Below are positions 2,449-64,000 of a DNA stretch of 64,000 nucleotides, piece by piece. This stretch comes from Potamilus streckersoni (Eukaryota). The notes beneath the pieces are model-generated. The model was not told where the DNA came from, ran no database searches, and saw only the letters and a program-made list of their open reading frames with translations. The position numbers and the translations under genes were made by a program. Every line of letters begins with the position of its first letter. The stretch's first letter is position 1. The stretch is taken from assembly GCA_016746295.1 (NCBI GenBank), contig JAEAOA010000822.1:950104-1014103 (forward strand), in the 5' to 3' direction.

Positions 2449-2636
2449 CTAACTCCAAATGTAAAGATCCTTGTGTTCTGGCAATGGCAGTGAATTTCAG
2501 CCAGAGTTATCTCCTCATTGTTCACATGACCATCTGTTATCAGGAATACATTCCTTAAACTGCTCTCTCGTTTTAAGAGATACAAGGAATGCAGTGGTCG
2601 GAGGGCTTCCGTGTTACCCATGTCGGCTTTCAAGCC
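2449..2636 (-). CDS. PARP4: PARP4-like exon T (vWA domain)
   Basis: Translation GLKADMGNTEALRPLHSLYLLKRESSLRNVFLITDGHVNNEEITLAEIHCHCQNTRIFTFGV aligns to human TPTMGNTDFWKTLRYLSLLYPARGSRNILLVSDGHLQDESLTLQLVKRSRPHTRLFACGIG. Acceptor ttgtttgttgcag, donor AG|gtacag. Phase 0 in, 2 out. This segment is locally CpG-rich. Confidence 0.8.
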
Positions 2637-4127
2637 CTGCAACAAACAACGTAGTAATGCATTGAATCACATTTGTTTTTTAATTTCATATTTATAATTA
2701 TTGCAAAACAAAACTGTTCATGGATGTTGATAGAAACTGTTTATAGCTAACTTTTCTTCATCTAAATTACTCAGTGTATCTGTTTCAGTCTAAAACATCA
2801 TTTATCAAGACCCATTGGGATATGAGATGATTGTTTTTAAATTACTGGCTGTCCAGAGAACTTGTACATTATTCAATACAAAACATGCATTTTGGAGACC
2901 AGTCATTGGTTTGCAACCGAAAAGTTCCATTCCAAGAATGGACTCATGTTCATTCTTGGAATAAATAAATTGCTGTTACATTAACATATACTTTAAATAT
3001 AAAATGAGACATACCACATGTAACAATTAAAAATATTTTACTTTTCAGTGCTTGAACTCTCATTTTTGACAATTCTTATATGTTTCTCCTATTGACTACA
3101 TATAGTGTATGTAAATAGGATATGCCTGAGGTAACTTCATGTAATGATTGCATAACAAAGTTACTTGCACAATAACATACATGAGCTAGCAACTGAGATT
3201 TGAGATTAACTCTACAAATATTTTTCTTAAAAATGTGATCTCTTCAAGGAACTTTAGCCATGAGTACCTGTGGTGCAGATAAGGAGAAAAATGTGATTTC
3301 CTAATATTTCCAATTACTACAAGACTCCTCAAACAGAAATTATTCATTGGACAACACCACTTTATGTGATTTGTTTTAATTCATCATATGGCACCATCAT
3401 GATGTGATGCCATGATTTTTTCTGAGTGTCAAGCAACTGTAATAGCAGTTTTGATATTGTGAATCATGTTTAATATATCACACTGCTATTTTACAATCAG
3501 AGAACTAGTATACTGATAGCAGTAATAAAAAACTAGAGCGCTGGATATTTGAGAAGCATTCAATGGCTTATAAATGGATTTGATTTGCTTCCATTATTGA
3601 TTTCATAAACTTCAATCTATGTACTATTTTTGACAACAAAATATTTTCTTTAATATTTGATATCCTCTCTACTGACCCAATAGTATATGACCTTTTGGCT
3701 ACGTTATAATGACCAGATCAAGGGGGTACCCTTGTTTAACAGTATAATGCTCAGTAATGTGCAGGGTAACACCTGTAGTACATGTTGAAAAAAATTATCA
3801 AACCCTAATGAACAAAAATATGTGTAGTCTGTATGCCAATCTAATGTCGAAACAATCTGCTTTATTTAACAGATCATCATTAAGTTCTGTAGTAAATAAA
3901 TTAGTGGCCCAATCTCTTAATTTAAAAGTCATGCACTGCATCTCATAATAAAATAATTTTATACCTATGTCGTAATGTATTTGAAATTAATGAACCAGCA
4001 GACCCATTATATTGACCTTTGATAATATACAAGTCTTACTGTTTCCTAAATGTCTTAATTACCTAAACAAAGTCAATTATTGTATAAAACATTAAAAACT
4101 TAAGTAATTAAGAGCAATCATGTGTAT

Positions 4128-4890: not shown

Positions 4891-4964
4891 CTGTACAAAC
4901 TTTTCAACTTTTTTAACATTCTCGGGTGTCTTGCAAACTCCTCCTGGAAAAAGCTCTCGATAAC
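4891..4964 (-). CDS. PARP4: PARP4-like exon S (vWA domain)
   Basis: Translation (G)YRELFPGGVCKTPENVKKVEKFVQ aligns to human YKELFSYPKHITSNTMAAEFIMSA. Acceptor tttttctttgttacag, donor CAG|gtaaca. Phase 1 in (from exon R), 0 out. Confidence 0.8.
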
Positions 4965-5189
4965 CTGTAACAAAGAAAAAAAGATCAAATAGAAATCTTT
5001 CTCTCAGAAATAAGCAAAGGTTTGCATCATGGTAGAAATAATGAACACTCAGAACAAGAGCAGACTTTTAATATGATAATAAACCATAAGCTGTCATGAA
5101 CAACAAAGTCACTGAGGCATAAAATATGCCTCACAGTGACCTAGTTCTGGTACTAAGTTGCAGTTTTATGGATAATACACTCCCTCACC

Positions 5190-5190
<1 letters not shown>

Positions 5191-5223
<33 letters not shown>

Positions 5224-5250
5224 GTAAAAATAATAATGATAATTTTTATT
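5191..5250. repeat. (AAT)n microsatellite
   Basis: ataataataataataataataataataata... Confidence 0.9.
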
Positions 5251-5846
5251 ATCATTCACTAAGCAATTGCTTTTCTCCCTTGAGGCTTCCTACTACAAGA
5301 CTTCTAATTCTACACTTAAATGTAAAAAAGAGAAAATGAACACACACAACAACCATAACACAAGCATGCACATACACAGATGTTTGGCAACTTCTATATA
5401 AAGAATATCATCTTGTATATGTACCTTCCATAATATCAAGATAAAGCAAAATGTGATTACATAATTAATATATGTGTGAGACCTCCTTTGAAAATTTCAC
5501 TTTGTAACCTTACATGTTTAAACATTCCTACTGTCTCTGCCAATCTTGCATAAAGAGAATTCAGTTTTATAGTACCAGTATAATGGAAGTAATTATTCAG
5601 TCTTTAGCTTAAGTAATTTCAGATCTGTATGACTAAATAATTTCAAACTGTGGATTAGGTTCTGACTAATGAAAATGAAACACGTAACTGCCTTTTTTAA
5701 TCAAAATTATACCAATTTTGTTAGGAAAAGACATGTACTCAGTGTACCTACAAGGGCATCAAATCCAATAAACTCAGTTTAAGTTGAATAATATATCTAG
5801 TGCTTGGCACAGTGCTTTCCCTTTAAGACTGAACTGTAGTCCTTAA

Positions 5847-6000
5847 TGTGTGTGTGTGTGTGATTTAGATTTTTAACGTCGCTTTAACAATTTTTCAGTC
5901 ATATCACTATAATGTCTGCAGTGTGAGAGTTTACAGTGATCTCTAGCACTGAAGCATCATGCATCAGACATGTACCATGATGTCCCACCCAGTCAACTTA
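5847..6000 (-). mobile_element. SINE family A, copy truncated to the tail-proximal half
   Basis: (GT)n followed by gatttagatttttaacgtcgctttaacaatttttcagtcatatcactat..., homologous to 213-380 and 14793-14960. Confidence 0.6.
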
Positions 6001-6002
6001 TC

Positions 6003-6112
6003 CCATGATATCTGACTTGATGTAACCCTATGATATTTTACCTGGACCAATGATTTTTGACTTGTTGCAACCCAAGATATTTGACCTGATGTAGCCCCAT
6101 GAATTTTACTTT
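6003..6112. repeat. ~27-bp tandem repeat x4 (tgatatttgacctgatgtaacccta)
   Basis: Direct reading, adjacent to the SINE-A fragment. Confidence 0.6.
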
Positions 6113-6277
6113 CAAAAAAAAAATAAGAAAGGACATCAATGTCAAAAAGGATATTATTGCTGACATTCTGGCTGAAAGAGAAGTTATACCTTGCTCTCAC
6201 TATCCAACTATGCAGTCAGGATAAATCTTTGAAATCATTTTGAAAAGTTCTGTCTTCATGCTTGAGAGTATAATACA

Positions 6278-6670
6278 TTCACTCACCAGTTCCAAACACA
6301 ATCACGTTGAAAGTCCACTGCTTGGGGATGTGGGCAAGGGTCAAAATTAGGATACATTCACTCACCAGTTCCAAACACAATCACGTTGAAAGTACACTGC
6401 TTGGGGATGTGGGCAAGGGTCAAAAGTAGGATACATTCACTCACCAGTTCCAAACACAATCATGTTGAAAGTCCACTGCTTGGGAATATGGGCAAGGATC
6501 AAAAGTAGGATACATTCACTCACCAGTTCCAAACACAATCACATTGAAAGTCCACTGCTTGGGGATGTGGGCAAGGGTCAAAAGTAGGATACATTCACTC
6601 ACCAGTTCCAAACACAATCACATTGAAAGTCCACTGCTTGGGGATGTGGGCAAGGGTCAAAAGTAGGACC
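6278..6670. repeat. 78-bp tandem array x5 duplicating the exon R 3' end plus its 5' splice site
   Basis: Each unit, on the minus strand, reads ACTTTTGACCCTTGCCCACATCCCCAAGCAGTGGACTTTCAAyGTGATTGTGTTTGGAACTG|gtgagtgaatgtatcct. The highest-coordinate copy is the real exon end; the four copies in the intron retain GTGAGT. Confidence 0.9.
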
Positions 6671-6789
6671 TTTTTGGCCTGAGTAAGGGCTGCACCCTTC
6701 ATAGAGTTGGACAAGTCCAGCAAAAAGATGACATCTGATTCTTCGTCTTGACTTGCCTCAAATTCAGGGAAAAATGACAGCATACATGC
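6603..6789 (-). CDS. PARP4: PARP4-like exon R (vWA domain, MIDAS motif)
   Basis: Translation ACMLSFFPEFEASQDEESDVIFLLDLSNSMKGAALTQAKKVLLLTLAHIPKQWTFNVIVFGT(G) aligns to human ACMLVFQPDLD...EVIICLDCSSSMEGVTFLQAKQIALHALSLVGEKQKVNIIQFGTG. Acceptor tcttgatttcag, donor ACTG|gtgagt. The 3' 68 nt and the donor are tandemly duplicated four more times inside the following intron (array 6278-6670). Confidence 0.85.
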
Positions 6790-7987
6790 CTGAAATCAAG
6801 AGATTTCATGGTTCAGATTTAAAAATGAGAAAAGACTTTTTTTAAAATAGAATACTTATATAAAATGGGTCATTTTTAGATCGAAAGCCAAAAGGTCTAA
6901 AATCCAGACAAAGACTCCAATTTTGCGCATAAAACAACTTTGTGTATGTATTTGAGATCTTTTGGTCTTAGATCTAAGTCAAGCCAGTCCAAACTGCACA
7001 GGGAGAGATAAACCTTTTGCAGCTTTAGAATTAAAAGGGGCCAGAAAACAAAATAAGTGCCTCCAATAAGAAAAAAAGTCAAATTTTCACCCTTCTGCAC
7101 ATACATGGGCAAAATAGCCAACCAAACAAATCCTGTGCACAATAAACAAGTGGAGAGTGTCCCATATACCAACTCATGACCAGACCTTCCAAAATTATAA
7201 ATTCTTGAAAGATAAAAATTCATGCAAAACAAAAATCCAGAAATAAATATGGGCAAATAAAACCTTATCTATCACAGGAACAATGAAGGGGAATTCAATT
7301 TAATAAAGCACTGTTTACTAATCCAGGTGCTAAAATTTACAAAAGGAACTTAACCAATCAAATAGCGCAAGGACTGTGGTGACAAACACACATTCAATAC
7401 AACAGGGGGAATCCTAAAAATATTTTGAAAACCAAATATGAAGAAAATTTTGACAAGCAATATAGTATACATGTAATTTATATGACATCCAAAGGAATGG
7501 GGGATAACATTCTGCATTTTGACAGTGACTCAGATGTTCTTTTATATTCTGGCACTCCAGTACTAAGGGTTGTTCTATTAAAATATATATGGGACCCTGG
7601 AAAGGCACTTTTAAAGTGTGTTACTCACCCATATATGCAATTTAGAATTTTCTGATCATTTAAATATGAAGTCTCTAAATCAAAGTATGCTAGCATATAT
7701 TTTTTAAAAAGTGCCTTACCTATGTACCATGTATGTTAAAATGAGACCGCCCTAATTGGATGAGAGAATTATTAGCTTGACAATAGACTGTAAGTCATGG
7801 AATATAAAAACAAAGCAATAGTAACAGGTGTTCTTTTACTGTTATTGAATTTTATTTTGCATCATTTTTAGAGCAACCCCAATATATAACAAGCTAATTT
7901 TCCCTTGACATCGTTAAAGATCATGGATCTGTGATCTCCACCAGATCTATCAGTCTGATATGTCTAGTCACTGATCAAAATAAATAC

Positions 7988-12254: not shown

Positions 12255-12368
12255 CATCAGCATTATTTTGTGTGTAGGGCATTCAATAGTGCGAATGTCA
12301 AAGGGCATCTCCACAGAAACAAGTAGTGAAGTCCTGCCTTGTTTGACCTCTACAGTTGCAAGGTCAGA
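12255..12368 (-). CDS. PARP4: PARP4-like exon P (VIT domain)
   Basis: Translation SDLATVEVKQGRTSLLVSVEMPFDIRTIECPTHKIMLM aligns to human TKQSFSLTMSIEMPYVIEFIFSDTHEL. Acceptor tgtatttttcag, donor ATG|gtaaga. Phase 0/0. Confidence 0.8.
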
Positions 12369-26616: not shown

Positions 26617-26870
26617 GGGGGCCCCGAGTGGCCGAGTGGTCTAAAGCGCTGTCCGTTACGGATCACTGCCATCTCACCTCTGTCTGCGTGGGTTCGAGTC
26701 TAGGATTCGGCGAATGTGGATATGTGAGAAAGCTTGCCAGTAGCTTCTCGTGGGTCGGTGGTTCTTTCCGGTGATTTCCCGGTTTCTTCCTCCACCATTA
26801 ATACTGGCCGCCATGAATAGCCTATCGTGTGCTGAAAAATGGCGTTAAGCTCAACAACAACAACAACAAC
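26617..26870 (+). mobile_element. tRNA-derived SINE, family B, full length with target-site duplication
   Basis: tRNA-like head GGGGCCCCGAGTGGCCGAGTGGTCTAAAGCGCTG...GTGGGTTCGAGTC and a (CAA)n tail. A 10-bp direct repeat agtccaattg flanks it at 26607-26616 and 26871-26880. CpG-rich relative to its surroundings. Confidence 0.8.
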
Positions 26871-27331
26871 AGTCCAATTGTAACTGCAAAGTTTAAAATA
26901 TTGCTTTAATGACACACATCATACACTGGATGAAAAACCATCATAAGCTCACACAGTCTTGCAGTCAAGTGAACAAAGAAAAGGAAGTCAGAAAGGTGTT
27001 TCTGGAACAAAACCTGAACTAAATACAAAACCTCAACAGATAGTCAAACAGATGGACAAGGGTATGACTCGATACATCTTCCATCTGTGGCAAGACTATT
27101 CTAGAACAGAAAATTTGTGAAGATTCAAAACAATTTAAAATGTTAAAATTTACAAAAAAAGGGGCACAATTTTCTGAGATAGAAGGAATTTAATGATTAA
27201 ATAAATGTTGAGCTTGGAAATATAATTTGCAATTTTAATGCTTTCATTTGATATTAAGCATGATTTTGTAAAATCTAGCACATATCACAAAACTGAATGT
27301 CCAAGAAAAGATTCTCATGAAAATATCTAAC

Positions 27332-28230: not shown

Positions 28231-28232
<2 letters not shown>

Positions 28233-28317
<85 letters not shown>

Positions 28318-31899: not shown

Positions 31900-32140
31900 A
31901 TTTGAAAGTTTTTGTCAATATTTGCACATGCAGCTGATGTTATAAATGACTGCATGTAACAGTTGGTATCTGCATGCAGTTGATATTTTAACTGGCTGCA
32001 TGTAATGGTTGGTATTTGCATAGTACTGATGTCTTAAATGGCTGTATGTAATGGTTCATAATCACATTTGTAGCTGATGTCTTAACTGGCTGCATGTAAT
32101 GATCGGTATCTGCATACAGAATATTGTTACATTTTTCTCC
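31900..32140. repeat. ~60-bp tandem repeat x4 (tgcatgtaatggttggtatctgcatacagttgatgtcttaactggc)
   Basis: Direct reading; it starts 8 bp from the acceptor of exon H. Confidence 0.75.
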
Positions 32141-35640: not shown

Positions 35641-35956
35641 CTGGTGAATACAAATTCATTACAAATTTAACATTTTAAAATCTCAAACCCAGAATAAAGT
35701 AAGACATAAGAGAATATGAATATTACAAATTTCTGAAAAGGAATAATCTTTATTGTGCCATTTAATATTTAATATCTTGAAGAATAAAAGCAACAGCTGA
35801 CCATTCCAATCAGCAGGTTTAAGTAGTACTGTAAGAAGAACACAACCTATGTACACTATCTTCCAATCTTTTTATTTTACTATATCCTGATCAAGCCATA
35901 GCAAATGTACACTGAAGTCATTCAAGATCATAATGATAACGAGCTTATATAAATTG

Positions 35957-36197
35957 GTTGTTGTTGTTGTAGGGTTTAACGCCATTTTTCAGCACAATAT
36001 AGGCTATACATGGCGGCCAATATTACTGGTGGAGAAAGAACCCTGGAAAACCCAGGAAAGAACCACCGACCCACGAGAAGCTACTGGCAGGCTTTCTCAT
36101 TGACCCACATTAGCCGAGTCTGGACTCAAACTCACGCAGACAGAGGTAAGATGGCAGTGATCTGTAACTTTCATCGCTTTAGACCACTCGGGGCCCC
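35957..36197 (-). mobile_element. SINE family B copy
   Basis: Reverse complement of the family B consensus; the (TTG)n tail is at the low-coordinate end. Flanking direct repeat tatataaattgg / tatacaaattgg. Confidence 0.8.
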
Positions 36198-37028: not shown

Positions 37029-37200
37029 TCTCAGGTGCAGTCATTGTGGATATGTGAGAAATCTTGTCAGGAGCTTAGCATGGCTTGGCGGTTCTTACCA
37101 GGGTTTTCCCATGTTCTTTTTCCACCAGTTGTACTGGCCACCATAGCCAATATTGCATTGAAAAAAGGCAATAAACTCCAAAACAGCAACAACAAAGATG
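37029..37200 (+). mobile_element. SINE family B, 5'-truncated copy
   Basis: Matches the family B body ...gtggatatgtgagaaatcttgtcagg...ccaccagttgtactggccaccatagcc... followed by a (CAA)-like tail. Confidence 0.65.
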
Positions 37201-37381
37201 AACATCACATGATGCTATAAAGATAGGCAAAACTCTATCAGTTACCATAAACTATGAGTATTGAAAAACAATCATAATAATATATTCCAGTCCAAATAAG
37301 AAAATATTTAAATATATAAACACTTTTATTGCATATTAAGAGAATAATTACTCTATATTATTCAAACTTCTCCTACCATAC

Positions 37382-43129: not shown

Positions 43130-46100
43130 ATACCTAATAATACCATGATCTGTTAGCACACAATCGGTCTATGATATTTGCTCTCAGAGTAAAGTATATC
43201 ATGATCTATCAGAGCATTATAAGTCTATGCTGTTTGCTCTCAGAGTAATGTATACTATGATCTGTTAGTACATAATGGGTCTATGCTGTTTGCTCTCAGA
43301 GTGGATATGTAGACAGCTTGCAAGTAGCTTCTTCTGGGGGTTTCCCGTGTTCTTCCTCCACAATTAATACTGTCTGCCATGTATAGCCTATCATGTGCTG
43401 GAAAATGGCATTAAACCATACAACATCAACATCATTGCTCTCAGAGTAATGTATACCATGATCTATTCACAATTGATGTGTATTTGTTTGTGCTGTTTGT
43501 TCTCAGATTAATGTATAATGTGATCTATTAGCACATGATGGATTCTCTCATTAGAGAGCAAAATGGGTCAATTTTGTTTGCTATTAGTGTAATGTATACC
43601 ATGACTTGTTGGCACATAATGGGTCTATGCAGTTTGGTCTCAGAGTAATGTATACCATGATCTGTTAGCACATAATGAGTCTAAACAATTTGGTCTCAGA
43701 ATAAAGTATACCATGATCTGTTAGTACATAATGATTCTATGCAGTTTGGTCTCAGAATAATGTATACCATGATTTGTTAGCACATAATGGGTCTATGCAG
43801 TTTGGTCTCAGTGTAATGTATACCATGATCTGTTAGCACATATTGGTTCTATGCAGTTTGGTCTCAGAGTAATGGATACCATGATCTGTTAGCACATAAT
43901 GGGTCTATGCAGTTTGGTCTCAGAATAATGTATACCATGATCTGTTAGTACATAATGATTCTATGCAGTTTGGTCTCAGAATAATGTATACCATGATTTG
44001 TTAGCACATAATGGGTCTATGCAGTTTGGTCTCAGATTAATGTATACCATGATCTGTTTTTACATAATGGGTCTATGCAGTTTGGTCTCAGATTAATGTA
44101 TACCATGATCTGTTTTTACATAATGAGTCTATGCAGTTTGGTCTCAGAGTAATGTGTACCATGATCTGTTAGCACATAATGGGTCTATGCAGTTTGGTCT
44201 CAGAATAATGTATACCATGATCTGTTAGCACATAATGGGTCTATGCAGTTTGGTCTCAGAATAATGTATACCATGATTTGTTAGTACATAATGATTCTAT
44301 GCAGTTTGGTCTCAGATTAATGTATACCATGATCTGTTTTTACATAATGAGTCTATGCAGTTTGGTCTCAGAGTAATGTGTACCATGATATGTTAGCACA
44401 TAATGGGTCTATGCAGTTTGGTCTCAGAATAATGTATACCATGATCTGTTAGCACATAATTGGTCTATGCAGTTTGGTCTCAGATTAATGTATACCATGA
44501 TCTGTTTTTACATAATGAGTCTATGCAGTTTGGTCTCAGATTAATGTATACCATGATCTGTTAGCACATAATTGGTCTATGCAGTTTGGTCTCAGATTAA
44601 TGTATACTATGATCTGTTTTTACATAATGAGTCTATGCAGTTTGGTCTCAGAGTAATGTGTACCATGATCTGTTAGCACATAATGGGTCTATGCAGTTTG
44701 GTCTCAGAATAATGTATACCATGATCTGTTAGCACATAATGGGTCTATGCAGTTTGGTCTCAGAATAATGTATACCATGACTTGTTGGTACATAATGAGT
44801 CTATGCAGTTTGGTCTCAGAGTAATGTATACCATGATTTGTTAGCACATAATGGGTCTATGCAGTTTGGTCTCAGAATAATGTATACCATGATTTGTTAG
44901 CACATAATGAGTCTATGCAGTTTGGTCTCAGAATAATGTATACCATGATCTGTTAGTACATAATGATTCTATGCAGTTTGGTCTCAGAATAATGTATACC
45001 ATGATTTGTTAGCACATAATGGGTCTATGCAGTTTGGTCTCAGATTAATGTATACCATGATCTGTTTTTACATAATTGGTCTATGCAGTTTGGTCTCAGA
45101 TTAATGTATACTATGATCTTTTTTTACATAATGAGTCTATGCAGTTTGGTCTCAGAGTAATGTGTACCATGATCTGTTAGCACATAATGGGTCTATGCAG
45201 TTTGGTCTCAGAATAATGTATACCATGATTTGTTAGCACATGTGTCTATGCAGTTTGGTCTCAGAATAATGTATACCTTGATTTGTTAGTACATAATGAT
45301 TCTATGCAGTTTGGTCTCAGAATAATGTATACCATGATCTGTTAGCACATAATGGGTCTATGCAGTTTGGTCTCAGAATAATGTATACCATGATCTGTTA
45401 GCACATAATGGGTCTATGCAGTTTGGTCTCAGAATAATGTATACCATGATCTGTTAGTACATAATGATTCTATGCAGTTTGGTCTCAGAATAATGTATAC
45501 CATGATTTGTTAGCACATAATGGGTCTATGCAGTTTGGTCTCAGATTAATGTATACCATGATCTGTTTTTACATAATGGGTCTATGCAGTTTGGTCTCAG
45601 ATTAATGTATACCATGATCTGTTTTTACATAATGAGTCTATGCAGTTTGGTCTCAGAGTAATGTGTACCATGATCTGTTAGCACATAATGGGTCTATGCA
45701 GTTTGGTCTCAGAATAATGTATACCATGATTTGTTAGCACGTGTCTATGCAGTTTGGTCTCAGAATAATGTATACCATGATTTGTTAGTACATAATGATT
45801 CTATGCAGTTTGGTCTCAGAATAATGTATACCATGATTTGTTAGCACATAATGTGTCTATGCAGTTTGGTCTCAGATTAATGTATACTATGATCTGTTTT
45901 TACATAATGAGTCTATGCAGTTTGGTCTCAGAATAATGTATACCATGATTTGTTAGTACATAATGATTCTATGCAGTTTGGTCTCAGAATAATGTATACC
46001 ATGATCTGTTAGCACATAATGGGTCTATGCAGTTTGGTCTCAGAATAATGTATACCATGATCTGTTAGCACATAATGGGTCTATGCAGTTTGGTCTCAGA

Positions 46101-49735: not shown

Positions 49736-49856
49736 ACAAAACATATGCTATTTATGAATTGTGTTATCTCTAATTATTTAGTTTTGTTCTAGATAATACG
49801 ATTACACCTTAAACATATTCTGAATTTACCTTAAACATGGCATACTTTGAATTTAC

Positions 49857-50002
49857 CTTAAACATAGCATATTTTGCTATCTGGTAATTTTCCTCATCAA
49901 AGACTGGACAGTCTTTTTCTCCAAAGGTCCATTTTTTCACATTTTTCACATTAAATTGAGACCTGACTTTCTGTTTCTTCTCCTGTCTCTGTTGTCTTGA
50001 GG
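49857..50002 (-). CDS. PARP4: PARP4-like exon C (BRCT-to-PARP linker)
   Basis: Translation (A)SRQQRQEKKQKVRSQFNVKNVKKWTFGEKDCPVFDEENYQIAKYAMFK; the ENYQIAKYAMFK segment aligns to human QDFEVAKYNTLEK. Acceptor ttacttttcag, donor AAG|gtaaat. Phase 1 in, matching exon B. A duplicated in-frame donor lies 27 nt further on, at 49830. Confidence 0.7.
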
Positions 50003-50059: not shown

Positions 50060-50470
50060 TGCTAATTGTCAAGACTAGATTTTGTGGTACATCCTCTTCT
50101 TGTTAACTTACTTAACTCTAGGTTCTGTAGTACACTCTATATCCAGTCAACTCCCTTGTACTGTCGATTGTGTGGTATACCATATTCAACTCAACTTGCT
50201 TGTAATGTAGACTGTGTGGTACACCTTATTCTAATCAACTTACTTGTACTGTCGCTTGTCTAGCAGACCCAATTCTAGTCAGCTCACTTGTACTGTAGAT
50301 TATCTGGTACACCTTAATCCAGTCAACTCACTTGTACTGTAGACTGTGTGGCAAAACCTATTCCTCCCATCAACTCATTTGTACTGTAAATTGTGTGGTA
50401 CACCCTATTCTAATCAACTTATTTGTAATGTAGATTTGTGTGACACACCCTATTCTAGTCAACTAACTGG
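50060..50470. repeat. 44-bp satellite block 1 (ccagtcaacttacttgtactgtagattgtgtggtacaccctatt)
   Basis: The same unit is found at 51370-51660 and 53470-55990. Confidence 0.9.
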
Positions 50471-51369: not shown

Positions 51370-51660
51370 CCTAATTTTTAAAACTCAACTCACTTGTACT
51401 GTAGATTGTGTGGTACACCCTAATCAAGTAAACTTACTTGTACTGTAGATCATGTGGTACACCCTATTCCAGTCAACTTACTTGTACTGTAGATTGTGTG
51501 GTACACCCTACTCCAGTCAACTTACTTGTAATATAGATTGTGTGGTACACCCTATTCCAGTCTACTTGTACTGTGTGTGGTAACACCCTAATCTAGTCAA
51601 CTTACTTGTACTGTAGATTGTGCAGCACAACCAATTCCAGTCAACTTACCTGTACTGTAT
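51370..51660. repeat. 44-bp satellite block 2
   Basis: Ends exactly at the left TA of the TIR element. Confidence 0.9.
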
Positions 51661-53469: not shown

Positions 53470-55990
53470 ATTGTGTGGTACAACCTATTCCAGTCAACTC
53501 ACTTTTACTGTAGTTTGTGTGGTACACCCCATTCCAATCAACACACTTAAAAAGTAAATTGTGTGGTACACCCTTCTCTAGTCAACCTACTTGTACTGTA
53601 GCTTGTGTGGTACACCCTATTCTAGTCAACTTACCTGTAATGTAGATTGTGTGTTACACCCTATTCTAGTTAACCTACCTGTACTGTAGATTGTGTGGTA
53701 CACCCTATTCTAGTCAACTTACTTGTACTGTATATTATGTGGTACACCCTTCTCTAGTCAACTCACTTGGACTGTAGATTGTATGGTACACCCTATTCCA
53801 GTCAACTTATTTGTGCTGTAGATTGTGTGGTACACCCTATTCCAGTCAACTTACTTGTACTGTATATTGTGTGGTACACCCTTCTCTAGTCAACTCACTT
53901 GGACTGTAGATTCTGTGATACTCCATTTTTCAGTCAACTTACTTGTACTGTAGATTGTGTAGTACATATATTCCAGTTAACTTACATGTATTGTAGATTG
54001 TGTGGTACACCCTATTCCAGTCTACTTGTACTGTGTGTGGTACACATTAATCTAGTCAACTTAATTGTACTGTAGATTGTGCAGCACAACCAATTCCAGT
54101 CAACTTACCTGTACTGTATATTGAGTGGTACACCCTACTCCAGTCAACTTACCTGTACTATATATTGTGTGGTACACCCTACTCCAGTCAACTTACTTGT
54201 ACTGTATATTGTGTGATACACCCTATTCCAATCAACACACTTAAAAAGTAAATTGTGGTGTACACCCTTCTCTAGTCAACTTACTTGTACTGTAGCTTGT
54301 GTGGTACAGCCTATTCTAGTCAACTTACCTGTAATGTAGATTGTGTATTACACCCTATTCTAGTTAACCACCTGTACTGTAGATTCTGAGGTACACCCTA
54401 TTCTAGTCAACTTACTTGTACTGTATATTGTGTGGTACACCCTTCTCTAGTCAACTCACTTGGACTGTAGATTGTGTGGTACACCCTATTCCAGTCAACT
54501 TATTTGTGCTGTAGATTGTGTGGTACACCCTATTCCAGTCAATTTACTTGTACTGTATATTGTGTGGTACACCCTTCTCTAGTCAACTCACTTGGAATGT
54601 TGATTGTGTGGTACACCATTTTTCAGTCAACTTACTTGTACTGTAGATTGTGTAGTACACCATATTCCAGTCAACTTACTTGTACTGAAGATTGTGTGGT
54701 ACACCCTATTCCAGTCAACTCACTTGTACTGTACATTGTGTAGTACACCATTCTATAGTCAACTTACTTGAACTGTAGATTATGTGGTACAACCTATTCC
54801 AGTCATCTTACTTGTACTGTAAATTGTGTGGTACACCCTACTCCAGTCAACTTACTTGTACTGTAGATTGTGTGGTACACCCTATTCCAGTCAACTCACT
54901 TGGACTGTAGATTGTGTGGTACACCATTTTTCAGTCAACTTTTTTGTACAGTAGATTGTGTAGTACACCATATTCCAGTCAACTTACTTGTACTGAAGAT
55001 TGTGCGGTACACCCTATTCCAGTCAACTCACTTGTACTGTAGATTGTGTAGTACATCCTTCTCTAGTCAACTCACTTGAACTGTAGATTATATGGTACAA
55101 CCTATTCCAGACAAATTACTTGTACTGTAAATTGTGTGGTACACCCTACTCCAGCCAACTTACTTGTACTGTAGATTGTGTGGTACACCCTATTCCAGTC
55201 AACTCAAAAAGTAAATTGTGTGGTACACCCTACTCCAATCAACTTACTTTGTACTGTATATTGTGTGGTACACCCTATTCTTGTCAAATTACTTGTACTG
55301 TATATTGTGTGGAACACCCTACTCCAGTCAACCCACCTAAACTATAAATTGTGTGGTTCACCCTATTCTAGTCAACTTACTTGTACAGTATATTGTGGTA
55401 CATCCTCTTCTAGTCAACTTACCTGTACTGTAGATTGTGTTACACCCTCTTCTAGTCAACTTACCGGTACTGTAGATTATGTGGGACACCTTATTCCAGT
55501 AAACATACTTGTACCGTATATTGTGTGGTACACAATTCTCTAGTCAACTCACTTGGAATGTAGATTTTGTGGTAGATCCTATGCTAGTCAACTAACTTGT
55601 ACTGTATATCGTGTGGTATACCCTTCTCTAATCAACTCATTTGCACTGTAGATTGTGTGATACACCGTATTCTAGTCACCTCACTTGTAATGTAGATTAC
55701 ACCTGTTCCAGTCAACTTACTTGTACTGTAGGTTGTGTGATGCATCCGATTCTAGTCAACCTAATTGTACTGTAGATTGAGTGGAACACCCTATATCCAG
55801 TCAACTCACTTGAACTGTAAATTGTGTGGTACAGCCTATTCCAGTCAACTAACTTGTACTGTAGATTGTGTGGTACATCCTACCATTAGGTACTGTAGGC
55901 TGTGTGGTCCACCCTATCCTAGTCAACTGCTTGACACTGTAGATTATGTGGTACACTATATTCAACTCTTTAGCACTGCTGATTGTGTGG
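53470..55990. repeat. 44-bp satellite block 3 (2.5 kb)
   Basis: Starts exactly at the right TA of the TIR element; it produces the spurious cysteine-rich ORFs 54474..56055. Confidence 0.9.
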
Positions 55991-56088: not shown

Positions 56089-56287
56089 CAGAAATCTTCC
56101 CCAATTTAAGTTCCTCTGCCTTATTCTTGCCCAAGAGCAAATAGCCATCAGTGTTAAGTAGTCTCCCTTTATCAATACAGTCTCTGACATAGTCTAGACA
56201 GATGATAGGAATACCGTACTTGGTAGCCATCTTACATTTGTAAGACATATCTGCCTTCTTTGGGTCACCGCATAGAACATGAGTTGA
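56089..56287 (-). CDS. PARP4: PARP4-like exon B (BRCT)
   Basis: Translation STHVLCGDPKKADMSYKCKMATKYGIPIICLDYVRDCIDKGRLLNTDGYLLLGKNKAEELKLGKIS aligns to human CTHIILDNAD...HIANPDFIWKSIREKRLLDVKNY. Acceptor ttttttttctttttccttattttcag and donor CTG|gtaagt are both strong. Phase 0 in, 1 out. Confidence 0.85.
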
Positions 56288-57042
56288 CTGAAAATAAGGA
56301 AAAAGAAAAAAAAATAAATTAATTAAAGATTAAGTTTCATCTGTGTGATGTGTGCCTACTGTCATGTCACTTAAGGGCAGTTTACTAAAATTGTTTTCAA
56401 ATGATATCAAAAAATCAAATAAGCCTAGACCCAAATCTAAGACTGCATAATTCTGTCTGGTCAATGTCACTATTATTATTATTAATATTCACTTGAAATC
56501 ATAAATAGAAAGAACATAATAAACCCAGATTATCTTGAGAAATTAAGGGATTGCAGCTCTAGATGTATGCTGATAACATTTTGTGCACAACTTAATATGG
56601 CATGTCTCAAAAGATGGAATAATGAAGAGATTAATTCTGAAGCTCTCATGTCTTTAACCTTCTGTTAAAATCCTTTTCCTCAGACAGGAGATTTGTGTTT
56701 CATTGCTGTTAATCAAATTATATTAGACTGACAACAAGCATGAAATACTCATAGGCCAAAAATATTTCAAATATTTAAGAAATACTGCAAAATTTGAATC
56801 ATGGAATTCATTGTTTTGAATTTTCCAAGGAAGTAGAAGAAAGAATCTGCTATGCCAGGAATAATTTCAAGTAATGTCTAGTAGTCAACGAGTGATACTT
56901 AGATTAACAATATTTTAGTAATGCTTAGTATTTAATTGTTGCCAAGTATTCAACTAATGCACAGTATATGAATATGATGTCTATCATTTGGGTGTTGCCT
57001 ATAATTTGAGTTAATTTCAGTGATATCTAGTATTCAAGAATG

Positions 57043-57298
57043 TTGGTTGTTGATGCTGTAGGGTTTAATGCTATTTTTCAGCACACTATAGTCCATATAT
57101 GGCAGCCAGAATTAATGGTAAAGGAACCAGAGAAAACCCAGGAAAGAACCACCGACCTACAAGAAGCTACTGACAAGCTTTCTCACATATCTACATTGGC
57201 CGAATCCAAGATTCGAACCCACAGAGACAGAGTTGAGATGGCAGTGATCTATAACAGACAGCACTTTAGACCACTCGGCCACTTTAGTCCTCTTCAAG
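57043..57298 (-). mobile_element. SINE family B copy
   Basis: Reverse-complement match to family B over nearly its full length, including the tRNA-like head ...agaccactcggccac. Confidence 0.75.
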
Positions 57299-57429
57299 AC
57301 ATGTCTGGCATTTGAGTGATATATAGTATTCAAGAGATATCTAGTTTATGAGTGATATCTTGTATTAAACAGATGTCTAGTGTTTGAGGGATACCTAGTA
57401 TTTTAGTATTAGAGCGACACTTGTTATTT

Positions 57430-59339: not shown

Positions 59340-59995
59340 TCAAAGCATGTGAATAATACAAGAACTTAAAAGCCAATACTTCATTGCTGTACACATCAAT
59401 GTTCTGTCATCTATGTAAAGGCTCACTATAATAGTCAATGCACAATACAATGATCCCTCATGTAATGGTCGGTCATCATATAATGGTCTTTCACTATAAT
59501 CATCCCTCACTATGCAATGGTCCCTCACTATAATTGCTACTCAATAATGGTCTCTCAATATATAATGGTCCTTCACTATTATAAATCCCTCACCATGTAA
59601 TGGTCCCTCACTATATAATAGTCTTTCACTATCATGGTCCCTCACTATATAATTGTCTTTCACTATAATCATCCCTCACTATGCAATGGTGGTGGTTGTT
59701 GTTGTTCTTGTTGTGGGGCTTAACACCATTTCTCAGCACATGATAGGCTATACATGGCGGCCAGTATTAATGGTGGAGGAAAAACCTGGGAAATCCACAG
59801 AAAGAACCACTGACCCACGAGAAGCTACTAGCAAGCTTTCTCACATATCCACATTCACCGAATCTTAAACTCGAACCCACACAGACAGAGGTGACTTGGC
59901 TGTGATCCAAAATGGACAGCGCCACTCAGGGCCCCTTATGCAATGGTACCTCACTATGATTGCTATTGTATAATGGTCCTTCAATATAATTCTAC
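59340..59995. repeat. 22-bp minisatellite (taatggtccctcactatataa) split by the SINE-B insertion
   Basis: The array occupies 59340-59688 and 59936-59995, on either side of the SINE. Confidence 0.85.
59689..59935 (-). mobile_element. SINE family B copy inserted into the 22-bp minisatellite
   Basis: Reverse-complement match to family B. The flanking direct repeat ~tatgcaatggt sits on both sides, inside the minisatellite. Confidence 0.8.
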
Positions 59996-61079: not shown

Positions 61080-61320
61080 GAACTTCTGATATTTCATTTA
61101 CTTACCCTGTGTTATCCTTGTTCAACAATTATCTTATTCTGTGTTACCCTTGTTCAGCAATTACCCACACTGTGTAACCATTCTTTAAAGATTACCTACC
61201 CTATGTTACCCTTGTTCAGCAATTACCTATCCAGTGTTACCCTTGTTAAACAATTACCTATCCTGTGTTACCCTTGTTCAACAATTACCTACCTTGTGTT
61301 ACCCTTGTTCAAGCTCTTTG
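61080..61320. repeat. 33-bp tandem array x7, each unit carrying a 5' splice-site-like motif
   Basis: The minus-strand unit is gataggtaattgttgaacaagggtaacacag. AACAAGG|GTAACA is the same motif that ends the SGIK ORF at 61303. Confidence 0.85.
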
Positions 61321-61909
61321 GATTAATCTTGATCTTGTCCTGATTGAGTTTGCCAGCTGCATCTAATCCTATAGCATCAAGCACACATCCACCTGTGGTG
61401 ATATTCATTTTGCTGCTAAGAGGGGCAAGACCCTTCCTTGGATGCATGCTAACAGCATGCGAGTCGGAATCACTTTTCTCAATGCCAAGGTGTGCACCAC
61501 CTAATCCACTCATCAGGTTTTGATGATCATCCTTCAAACCACTTGCTGTACTGTAATGACTGCTGGTCAAACTACTGACAATGCTAGATTTAATACCACT
61601 CTTACTGGTGAAATGATCCAGATGTGGAGTGGCTGTCACTTTAATTCCACTCATACTGATGGTATTGCTAGAAAGGAGACTACTTTCCCCAGCAATAAGA
61701 CTATGCAGCAACTTGCTGGCAAGGTTGCCATCAATTAAACCCCCACTCAAGTTGGTACATTGTTTGACTGCCTTGTTGATGCCAGTTGTGCCCAAATTTG
61801 CCTTCAACTGATCAGAAGAACTGACATCTGTGCACATTTTACTAGCGCACAAATTTGTCAATGTTCTCTTTCCATCAACATGTATACCAAGCCTGCTTCT
61901 GTCAGCCAT
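61303..61909 (-). CDS. Ser/Gly-rich SGIK-repeat ORF: candidate 5' coding exon (N-terminal extension of the PARP4-like gene) or a separate gene
   Basis: A 636-nt open frame on the minus strand (ATG at 61907-61909): MADRSRLGIHVDGKRT...SMSGIKVTA...SKSGIKSSI...GGCVLDAIGLDAAGKLNQDKIKINPKSLNKG. The region is unusually long and GC-richer than its AT-rich surroundings. It ends at a plausible donor AAGG|gtaaca in phase 1, which is compatible with the alternative acceptor of exon A at 59166. A related ORF with the same SGIK motif, in another frame, lies at 61950-62144. I see no homology to a known family. Confidence 0.3.
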
Positions 61910-64000
61910 ATTAGACTTGATCACAGTTCCAAGATTTTCTGAGCTTTTATTATTTTTGTCCAGAGATCAATTTCTGCTGTGAAAGCTTAATACCACTGAG
62001 AGTGTTTGTGCCACCAATTAAAGAACTCAAACTAGGGTTTGTCTTCTCCAGGTTTTGACTACCATTGCTAATAAAGATATTTGTCAAAGTCTTTGAATCA
62101 GACGAAGGAACTCCTGGACTGAATTGACCAATATATTTCATCAAGGTGACGTAGTCTTTGTTTACATCAACTGGATCCCTTTTGGTTATTTATTTTTAAA
62201 AAGCCTTCAAAATACTGTCATACACTTGTATACCTTCTGAATTGAATTGATGTATCTTGCCTGAAATATAAAATACATTAAGTGGTTGATCAATTTAATC
62301 TGTTTTTCTATATTAAAATGTGTATTAGCTTAAATATAAAACAAATTCAGGTGGTTAATCAATTTGATGTTTATAGATTATGATAATGGATCAAATGGGA
62401 CTTACATTCCAATTAATTCAGTAAAACTCACATGATTCCTGACAAATTTAAAAACTAATTTTAGCTTTAAAATTTAATAATAACATAGTTATAACAAAGT
62501 TTATTCAATCATGATTTTTTAGTGAACTGCACATTAATTGTCATAACATAAGTTCCAGATGAAAATTATCGATCACTAATGACTTTTACAATGGAAGAAT
62601 GGGTCAAGAAAATTGACATTGGAATTAGCTATTACCTACCAGTGCAGGGGGAATCAAGGTAGTCAAGAGCAGTTTTATTCATCTCCTGTATGGGTTTTCA
62701 AATATGAATGATATAGAGGAATAATATACAGTAAGTTTTATTCTTAACTTTTACATTCAACATTTCTTCACAATTATAATTTAGTATGATGTAAAAGGTA
62801 ACTAAAACAATGTGAATTAACAGCCATGTCTTTACTATTTTTAACATGCAAGAAGGAACATATCTGCATGGGAAAACGTTTAATGGGGACACCCCCATTA
62901 ACTTCACTGTACCTACAAATGTCAAAGTACATTATCATTGAATTTGGTATTAAGTATGTTTTGATTATACAATAATCTTCTAAAGAATTTTGATGGACAA
63001 GTTGTGAAATAAAGTAAATAAATGCCATTTAAAGGTATGTCAAACCAAATTCTCCAAAACAACACTTATAGCTTAATCAATGACTCAGTGCATGTATATG
63101 AGTCATGAAAGTTGTATGATAAACATAGGAACTCATACGAGGATTCAGTTACTAAGCAGAGGATCTTACACAAATCCTCAATTCAAATAAAATTTAGGGA
63201 AAAAAGTTTGAACAATTTCTGTCTGGTGAGATTTGCAATGTAATCCAAAATTTACGAAAAAATATCATAGATGAGATGGCTTCAAATTTTGATGTTCAAA
63301 CCGACCTGAGATTGAATTACATTTTCAAATGTATTAAAAATCAATTGATACACATTTTCTACATTCCACTACTAATGATATAGCAGAGGTCCCTTTCTAG
63401 CACTAAGTGCAAACATGGGTGTTAAAAGTGGTAGATAATGTCATGTAAAAACAAAATGCATTGGCAGAATCCTGCATTTACAATTCAAAAAAAAAAGAAA
63501 CGGGATTTCTCAGACTGTTATAATTTGAAGGTAACTTTCAAACTTGTTACAAAATATTTTTCTCCACCACTCTTTATTATTTTCAAAGCAGAGAACAAAC
63601 ATACAATAACTAAATTAAATAATCTTTAGTTCCATGTAGAAATTCTGGATCATGATTGTCTTTCAACTATAAATTCAGTTATGTGAACTGACGTTTGTTA
63701 ATATCAATAAACTGTGATGCAAATCAATTACAAAAGCCTATACAAATTTAATCAAAAAAAAAATTTAATGGAGAATTAGAAGAACATTATTGTTCCTGCG
63801 TAAACACTAATTGCTGTAGTGCTGGTTCTCAAAACATAATTCCATATCAATATAATTGATTACATAGGCTAGACTGGCTGAGAAAAGGAGCAAACACCAA
63901 CCAGATCATCAATTCCATGCATAGACAAGAACTACTAATAACCTTACCATAAAACATAATCCCCAGATTGTAAAATACTGATCACAGTGACTGATGGTTA

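Follow-up and report, generated by a model that had tools for sequence, protein, structure and literature searches.

Minisatellites whose first monomer lies across an exon–intron boundary are known from the human genes F7, IFI6, CBS, LMNB2, and PDGF (PMC1557585). The IVS7 minisatellite of F7 comprises five to nine copies of a 37 bp unit (Borensztajn et al. 2006, PMC1557585). Experiments with 50 constructs showed the pseudo-sites there to be functional, but splicing takes the most upstream donor alone, through a selection that is oriented 5'-to-3' and does not depend on cell type (PMC1557585). In IFI6 (6-16) intron 2 and CBS intron 13, the first two pseudo-sites are used constitutively besides the authentic donor, and in LMNB2 (100 bp, 10–15 copies) and PDGF intron 4 (81 bp, 16–18 copies) only the authentic donor is used (PMC1557585). 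Classical experiments with duplicated donors conflict, with either the upstream or the intron-proximal copy winning (PMC1557585). Normal splicing is lost upon a junction duplication in human FGG (PMC9052919), and, as described for PAH exon 11, U1 that binds shortly past a donor can enhance the definition of the exon (PMC5933811). The boundary-spanning layout is thus already documented in human genes, and the mollusc PARP4 gene described here is an added case.

The array lies in a 64-kb window, by which we mean the whole stretch of DNA that was analysed. On the evidence of homology and domain order, the host gene is the orthologue of PARP4 (vault PARP), most likely from a bivalve. Pfam matches in minus-strand exon order are BRCT (2e-11), PARP catalytic (9e-32), VIT (2e-33), and VWA_3 (8e-17), and the window thereby presents the BRCT–PARP catalytic–VIT–vWA succession expected of PARP4. 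At least 16 homologous exons were located by tblastn; they all lie on the minus strand, between ~59.2 kb and 2.4 kb, and the N-terminal BRCT exon is at ~59170. The composite exon translation matches proteins named PARP4 in many animals, the best named matches being those of Crassostrea gigas (80%, VIT domain) and Tegillarca granosa (55%, vWA domain). No protein match exceeding 80% identity to the 408-aa composite query was found, and a search with the peptide of exon R, the exon under study, returned a single Logan fragment that is 67% identical. Separately, VIT–vWA proteins on ENA metagenome contigs of up to 2.4 Mb (P0004–P0009 and P0028) are 70–75% identical to the VIT domain here, and one protein from a MAG with the label Thermoanaerobaculia reaches 58% identity in its best local alignment. 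Such likeness could reflect eukaryotic contamination of the bins or a notably conserved domain.

Exon R is a vWA-domain exon of 187 nt on the minus strand (6789..6603), delimited by sequence and tblastn. It follows the acceptor tttcag|GCATGT at 6790/6789, and its last nucleotide, 6603, leaves the reading frame in phase 1 (...ACT G|gtgagt). Protein homology to 68–72 PARP4/VIT–vWA proteins stops at ...FNVIVFGT, in agreement with this boundary. The productive 5' splice site, CTG|GTGAGTGA with its GT at 6602-6601, is the only donor that keeps the vWA frame. Four pseudo-donor GTs follow on the same strand at 6523-6522, 6444-6443, 6365-6364, and 6286-6285 (span 6285..6523), preceded by last ‘exon’ nucleotides 6524, 6445, 6366, and 6287, respectively. 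All five CTG|GTGAGTGA sites score 11.8 on a rough 5'ss position weight matrix (PWM), which ranks them among the strongest donors of the gene. An earlier sequence-only reading of this DNA had proposed a real donor at 6603 followed by four pseudo-exon ends with intact donors, each running into a TGA two codons past the donor; both statements hold for every copy (G|GT GAG TGA). The first in-frame TGA upon read-through of donor 1 lies at 6595..6597 on the minus strand, where the open reading frame 6598-6795 ends, and it recurs in every unit. Donors 2, 3, 4, and 5 would extend exon R to 266, 345, 424, and 503 nt, and all of these extended exons translate to ...FGTGE*.

The intron after exon R (4965..6602, minus strand) measures 1638 nt and opens with 329 nt of array sequence, made up of the tail of unit 1 and units 2–5. 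Its sense strand carries one AATAAA (5250) and two ATTAAA (5701, 5072) poly(A)-like signals. The next exon (4891..4964, minus strand; G|GT TAT CGA ... = GYRELFPGGVCKTPENVKKVEKFVQ) is homologous, with the same boundaries, to an exon on L001, a Logan contig from another animal, and the following vWA exon (GLKADMGNTEALRPL...RIFTFGV; 2449..2636, minus strand) was placed by sequence and homology. Joining 6603 to 4964 yields ...FNVIVFGT-GYRELFPGG..., which forms one continuous VWA_3 match. The reading frame and this unbroken match point to donor 1 as the working donor.

Tandem Repeats Finder delimits the array at 6273-6668, with 5.0 copies of a 79-bp unit, 96% matches, no indels, and a score of 736, confirming that an exon end is repeated five times together with its 5' splice site. 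The period had previously been given as 78 bp, divided into 68 nt of exon and 10 nt of intron; the program output and the start-to-start spacings in a repeat search (79, 79, 79, 79) correct it to 79, and each minus-strand unit consists of 65–66 nt of exon R end and 13–14 nt of intron (CTG|GTGAGTGAATGTA). The ranges arise because one T is common to both sides of the unit junction (GTGAGTGAATGTA(T)). Unit 1 (6668-6590) is the exon's own 3' end together with the intron start; unit 2 (6589-6511), unit 3 (6510-6432), unit 4 (6431-6353), and unit 5 (6352-6274) are intronic, all in minus-strand orientation. The unit reads TCCTACTTTTGACCC...GTGTTTGGAACTG|GTGAGTGAATGTA on the minus strand, and it is bounded upstream of unit 1 by unique exon sequence (...GCCAAAAAGG) and downstream of unit 5 by unique intron sequence (TTATACTCTC...). 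We considered whether the array is coding sequence and rejected this: all three sense frames are closed inside each unit, and the 65-codon plus-strand open reading frames are antisense by-products.

Divergence among the copies is small and unevenly placed. Copies 1 and 2 are identical throughout, copies 3, 4, and 5 each carry private substitutions, and all seven variable columns lie within unit positions 1–48. Around the donor, 31 nt (18 exon nt and 13 intron nt of the unit) are invariant in 5/5 copies, with a post-hoc P=0.025, and could hint at constraint; the probability that none of the variable columns falls in the 9-nt donor motif by chance is P=0.41. Unit positions 47-48, a CpG, are the only site that separates groups of copies, which read CAACGTG in copies 4-5, CAATGTG in copies 1-2, and CAACATG in copy 3; this variation is consistent with deamination of methylated CpG in a gene body. 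Because copies 1 and 2 are the same and copies 3–5 share CAACGTG or its CpA decay product, turnover of the array appears to be continuing, with the exon copy taking part. That an assembler expanded the copy number, or the entire array, is very improbable. The identity of copies 1 and 2 over 79 nt is what such an artefact would produce, but the private substitutions in copies 3, 4, and 5 leave four distinguishable copy types, dozens of comparable arrays occur in the window, and the independent assembly of another bivalve, described below, has the same design. The presence of at least four distinct copy types makes a pure assembly artefact unlikely.

The closest counterpart is F7 IVS7. As in F7, the array starts inside an exon, so that the first monomer (unit 1, 6668-6590) holds the exon–intron junction, and the authentic donor is followed by sequence-identical intronic pseudo-donors, with five to nine donors in F7 and five CTG|GTGAGTGA sites here. 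In both genes productive mRNA needs the most upstream site, which was demonstrated experimentally for F7 and follows from the reading frame here. The two arrays differ in composition: the F7 unit has 4 exon nt and 33 intron nt, in contrast to the 65–66 and 13–14 nt of the PARP4 unit, in which a long pseudo-exon end is repeated too. They also differ in donor strength, which is weak in F7 (UGG|gugggu) and strong in PARP4 (CUG|GUGAGU). Furthermore, donor usage and copy-number polymorphism have been demonstrated for F7, whereas the present array, hosted by a mollusc PARP4 gene, is known from one haplotype. IFI6, CBS, LMNB2, and PDGF share the layout, and the LMNB2 and PDGF units (81–100 bp) are close in length to the bivalve units of 79 nt and, in Tegillarca, 95 nt; the human copy numbers are higher, and none of the human cases is in PARP4. 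A 403-bp duplication in a human patient likewise duplicates an exon end and its donor in tandem; unlike the five 79-nt copies in an otherwise intact gene seen here, it is single and results in intron retention and null expression.

We examined orthologous loci for the age of the intron and of the array. L001, which is 67% identical to the window in exon R, has three exons with the same boundaries, the same FGT ending in phase 1, and one donor. In the PARP4 loci of Tegillarca granosa (L002) and Solemya velum (L003), protein homology also stops after ...FGT. A tandem array at the exon R homologue is absent from all three of these loci. Since the intron position is conserved and none of the three orthologous loci has the array, the array is lineage-specific and the intron is old. 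This bears on the intron-gain model of Rogers (Lehmann et al. 2010, PMC2891723), in which an exonic AG|GT proto-splice site is duplicated. The PARP4 array resembles that model in that tandem duplication adds splice signals and the duplicate is removable without change to the mRNA; it differs in that no new intron is created and an existing conserved intron is merely lengthened. Intron gain by tandem duplication was rejected on the basis of the conserved position, seen as the shared boundary in L001 and as homology stopping at the same residue in Tegillarca and Solemya.

The PARP4 gene of Tegillarca granosa (GCA_029721355.1, CM056596.1) has a boundary-spanning array of its own, located not at the exon R homologue but at the counterpart of the window exon that ends at 12255. 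This array (L002, 3946-4438) has a period of 95 nt, 5.2 copies, and 94% identity, and it presents six AAG|GTAAGTC donors at 4022, 4117, 4212, 4307, 4402, and 4479. Its intronic copies are close to each other but stand apart from the exon copy, with a 3-nt indel among the differences, and for this reason we read it as older than the array in the window. The exon ending at 4022 continues directly into the next exon, so that the annotated protein uses the first donor. The Tegillarca array arose independently of the one in the window and has the same design.

Taken together, it is likely that the exon R array is a young, tolerated, lineage-specific minisatellite in which donor 1 is chosen by position, units 2–5 leave with the intron, and rare use of a later donor generates substrates for nonsense-mediated decay (NMD). 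Replication slippage or unequal exchange would have duplicated in tandem a 79-bp segment across the exon R–intron boundary, and the host genome appears to make tandem arrays at a very high rate. Unit 1 would stay the working exon end and donor, and units 2–5 would be removed with the intron. With five identical donors, position and not sequence would have to determine that donor 1 is chosen; candidate mechanisms are selection that proceeds 5'-to-3' and exon definition set by the upstream 3' splice site, as demonstrated by experiment for human F7 IVS7. A secondary structure that exposes donor 1 or masks donors 2–5 was tried as another basis for the choice and rejected: predicted RNA accessibility does not discriminate in favor of donor 1, for which the unpaired probability is 0.24, as compared to 0.29, 0.28, 0.37, and 0.13 for donors 2–5. 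Occasional use of donors 2–5 would add 79–316 nt with an immediate TGA, and such transcripts would be expected to be cleared by NMD. Provided that donor 1 is the donor used and that NMD disposes of the longer products, the array is probably neutral or mildly costly. The sequence-only reading had suggested that the copies could act as decoy or cryptic 5' splice sites. The arrangement itself, one productive donor and then four pseudo-donors that each lead to a premature TGA, is as in human F7, IFI6, and CBS; a selected decoy role is without support.

The same five donors could also be read as a hypomorphic or decaying allele, in which the downstream donors compete through their proximity to the 3' splice site, many TGA-containing transcripts are degraded, and the array persists because PARP4 is weakly constrained. 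The equality of the donors in sequence and a predicted accessibility that does not favor donor 1 (0.24 vs 0.13–0.37) agree with such competition, as do the loss of normal splicing upon FGG junction duplication (PMC9052919) and the additional use of the first two pseudo-sites in IFI6 and CBS (PMC1557585). Nevertheless, we judge this reading unlikely: all PARP4 exons identified in the window have open frames and show homology to orthologues, and the four domains are intact. The array is old enough to have gathered seven substitutions and is still expanding, an independent five-copy array is tolerated in the PARP4 gene of Tegillarca with the annotated protein on the first donor, and in the F7 experiments splicing was confined to the upstream donor. 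These observations are better accommodated by a tolerated minisatellite with positional choice of donor 1.

Two further regions of the gene had been put forward as recurrences of the same architecture. The first, at 49830-49857, is confirmed as a small array of the same design: Tandem Repeats Finder and the sequence define 2.3 copies of a 27-nt unit at 49806-49876 on the minus strand, comprising an exon end and donor. Two TTTAAG|GTAAAT donors (last exon nucleotides 49857 and 49830) are followed by a degraded third, TTTAAG|GTGTAA, at 49808, with PWM scores of 7.2, 7.2, and 3.5, and protein homology stops at 49857. The unit length of 27 nt is divisible by three and the added stretch is free of stops, so splicing at the second donor would lengthen the protein by nine in-frame residues (VNSKYAMFK), which makes 49830 a candidate alternative 5' splice site; in this respect the 27-nt array resembles IFI6, as its second donor could find alternative use.

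The second region, 61080-61320, does contain a tandem array, with 6.9 copies of a 31-nt unit, 80% identical, at 61098-61312 on the minus strand (Tandem Repeats Finder and sequence), but its standing as a PARP4 exon end with donor is ambiguous. The array begins at the 3' end of a 225-codon open reading frame, and several copies are without GT context. In phase, the putative donor AAG|GTAGGT at 61293 would fit the BRCT exon at ~59.2 kb, yet the same bases are the in-frame TAG stop of the open reading frame. Two long open reading frames, of 225 and 79 codons and serine/threonine-rich, overlap on the minus strand at 61292-62189, for which no Pfam match was found. If 61293 is a donor, they could form an N-terminal extension exon of PARP4; if the TAG acts as a stop, they could be the final exon of a gene further upstream. 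That the two frames differ where they overlap is suggestive of a small intron or a frameshift.

How often donor-spanning arrays should be expected depends on the repeat load, which is heavy: 45 non-redundant tandem arrays cover 27% of the window. Coverage at other PARP4 loci is 26% in Tegillarca, 5% in Solemya, and 9% in Lingula, and no donor-spanning array was seen in the Solemya or Lingula loci. In our chance model each array grows from a randomly placed founder unit, and the expected number of donor-spanning arrays is the sum of the periods multiplied by the number of donors and divided by the span. For the window, 0.46 such arrays are expected and two are observed (P=0.08); for the Tegillarca locus, 1.25 are expected and one is observed; for both together, the figures are 1.71 and three (P=0.25). 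As expected and observed counts are comparable, the recurrence of donor arrays within the gene is what its repeat density predicts, and the argument that recurrence makes a chance origin less likely does not stand against a 27% repeat load. Acceptor-spanning arrays have the same expectation, and none is observed in the window and Tegillarca (P=0.18); the difference of three donor-spanning to zero acceptor-spanning arrays is not significant. A 46-nt array at 31927-32119 was evaluated as acceptor-spanning and rejected, since protein homology puts the exon start at ~31895, about 30 nt away. The donor-over-acceptor trend, together with the lack of arrays inside exons, is consistent with simple purifying selection: a donor-side duplication would be harmless if the first donor is used, and acceptor-side or exon-internal duplications would be likelier to disrupt the mRNA.

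It had further been proposed that the copies serve as binding sites for U1 snRNP and protect this long gene by telescripting. As a selected landing pad, the four extra 5' splice sites would strengthen definition of the upstream exon or suppress intronic cleavage and polyadenylation. The array does resemble U1 telescripting and PAH exon 11 (PMC5933811) in that 5'ss-like sequences lie in the intron past the real donor and, matching a strong working donor (PWM 11.8), should bind U1; the ability of downstream U1 to enhance exon definition in PAH exon 11 and the 31 nt around the donor that do not vary in 5/5 copies also speak for a pad. A functional role was shown by mutation in those systems, unlike here, where nothing indicates selection for the sites. 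No array is found at exon R in the three orthologous loci, the conservation of the 9-nt motif is within chance (P=0.41), and in the two arrays of greater age, with 31-nt and 27-nt units, the donor motif has decayed. At 1638 nt the host intron is short, with just one AATAAA, and much longer PARP4 introns are without an exon-derived array. These results speak against a selected telescripting role, and the repeat density accounts for the frequency of the arrays.

One line of evidence for a U1 pad is strand bias, as strong 5'ss-like motifs at threshold 8 are far commoner on the sense strand of the window (94 vs 20 antisense). This excess is due to exon-derived arrays, which are sense by construction, and to one 44-nt satellite family, which supplies 46/94 of the strong sense-strand sites; outside repeats, the count is 39 sense vs 19 antisense, and the 39 include the real donors. 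We therefore regard a selected U1 landing pad as highly unlikely and retain the tolerated minisatellite as the preferred explanation. The satellite itself comprises ~70 units in three arrays (50076-50468, 51385-51659, and 53470-55882), which occupy the intron that separates the 56-kb exon from the 49.9-kb exon, and its sense-strand units bear CAA|GTAAGT-like motifs. An origin of the 53470-55882 array and the two smaller ones from the neighboring exon donor at 56089 was considered and rejected, as the satellite starts ~80 nt downstream and only the GTAAGTT motif is similar.

The count of three donor-spanning vs zero acceptor-spanning arrays in two PARP4 orthologues leads to a broader proposal: that arrays of exon end and 5' splice site are a recurrent class in repeat-rich bivalve genomes, specifically tolerated or even favored, possibly as U1 clusters that reinforce the upstream exon or protect the intron. 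We consider this proposal quite unlikely; if true, upstream-first donor selection of the F7 type would operate in molluscs too. By itself, the PARP4 array is a small structural curiosity in one gene. It nonetheless offers a natural experiment in a non-mammalian animal: one strong donor recurs in five identical copies at 79-nt intervals, the first alone being productive. Together with the 95-nt Tegillarca array, it could test outside mammals whether the most upstream donor wins, as in human F7. Donor-spanning arrays could, in addition, reveal the cost of unproductive splicing. For annotation they carry a warning: in mollusc genomes rich in repeats, gene predictors may settle on an incorrect donor copy or annotate pseudo-exons.

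Other repeats were noted along the gene. The donor of the PARP catalytic exon, GAG|GTAACTCT, directly precedes a perfect (AAT)28.7 microsatellite at 28232-28317, which starts 8 nt past the last nucleotide of that exon (28325). A dispersed repeat occurs in both orientations in the PARP4 introns, on the minus strand at 26703-26918, 43299-43466, and 37078-37251 and on the plus strand at 35891-36100, 57031-57312, and 59653-59865. All copies contain an open reading frame-like motif, ...FNAIFQHxIGYTWRPVLMVEE...TTDPREATGKLSHI..., and the family is presumably a transposable element.
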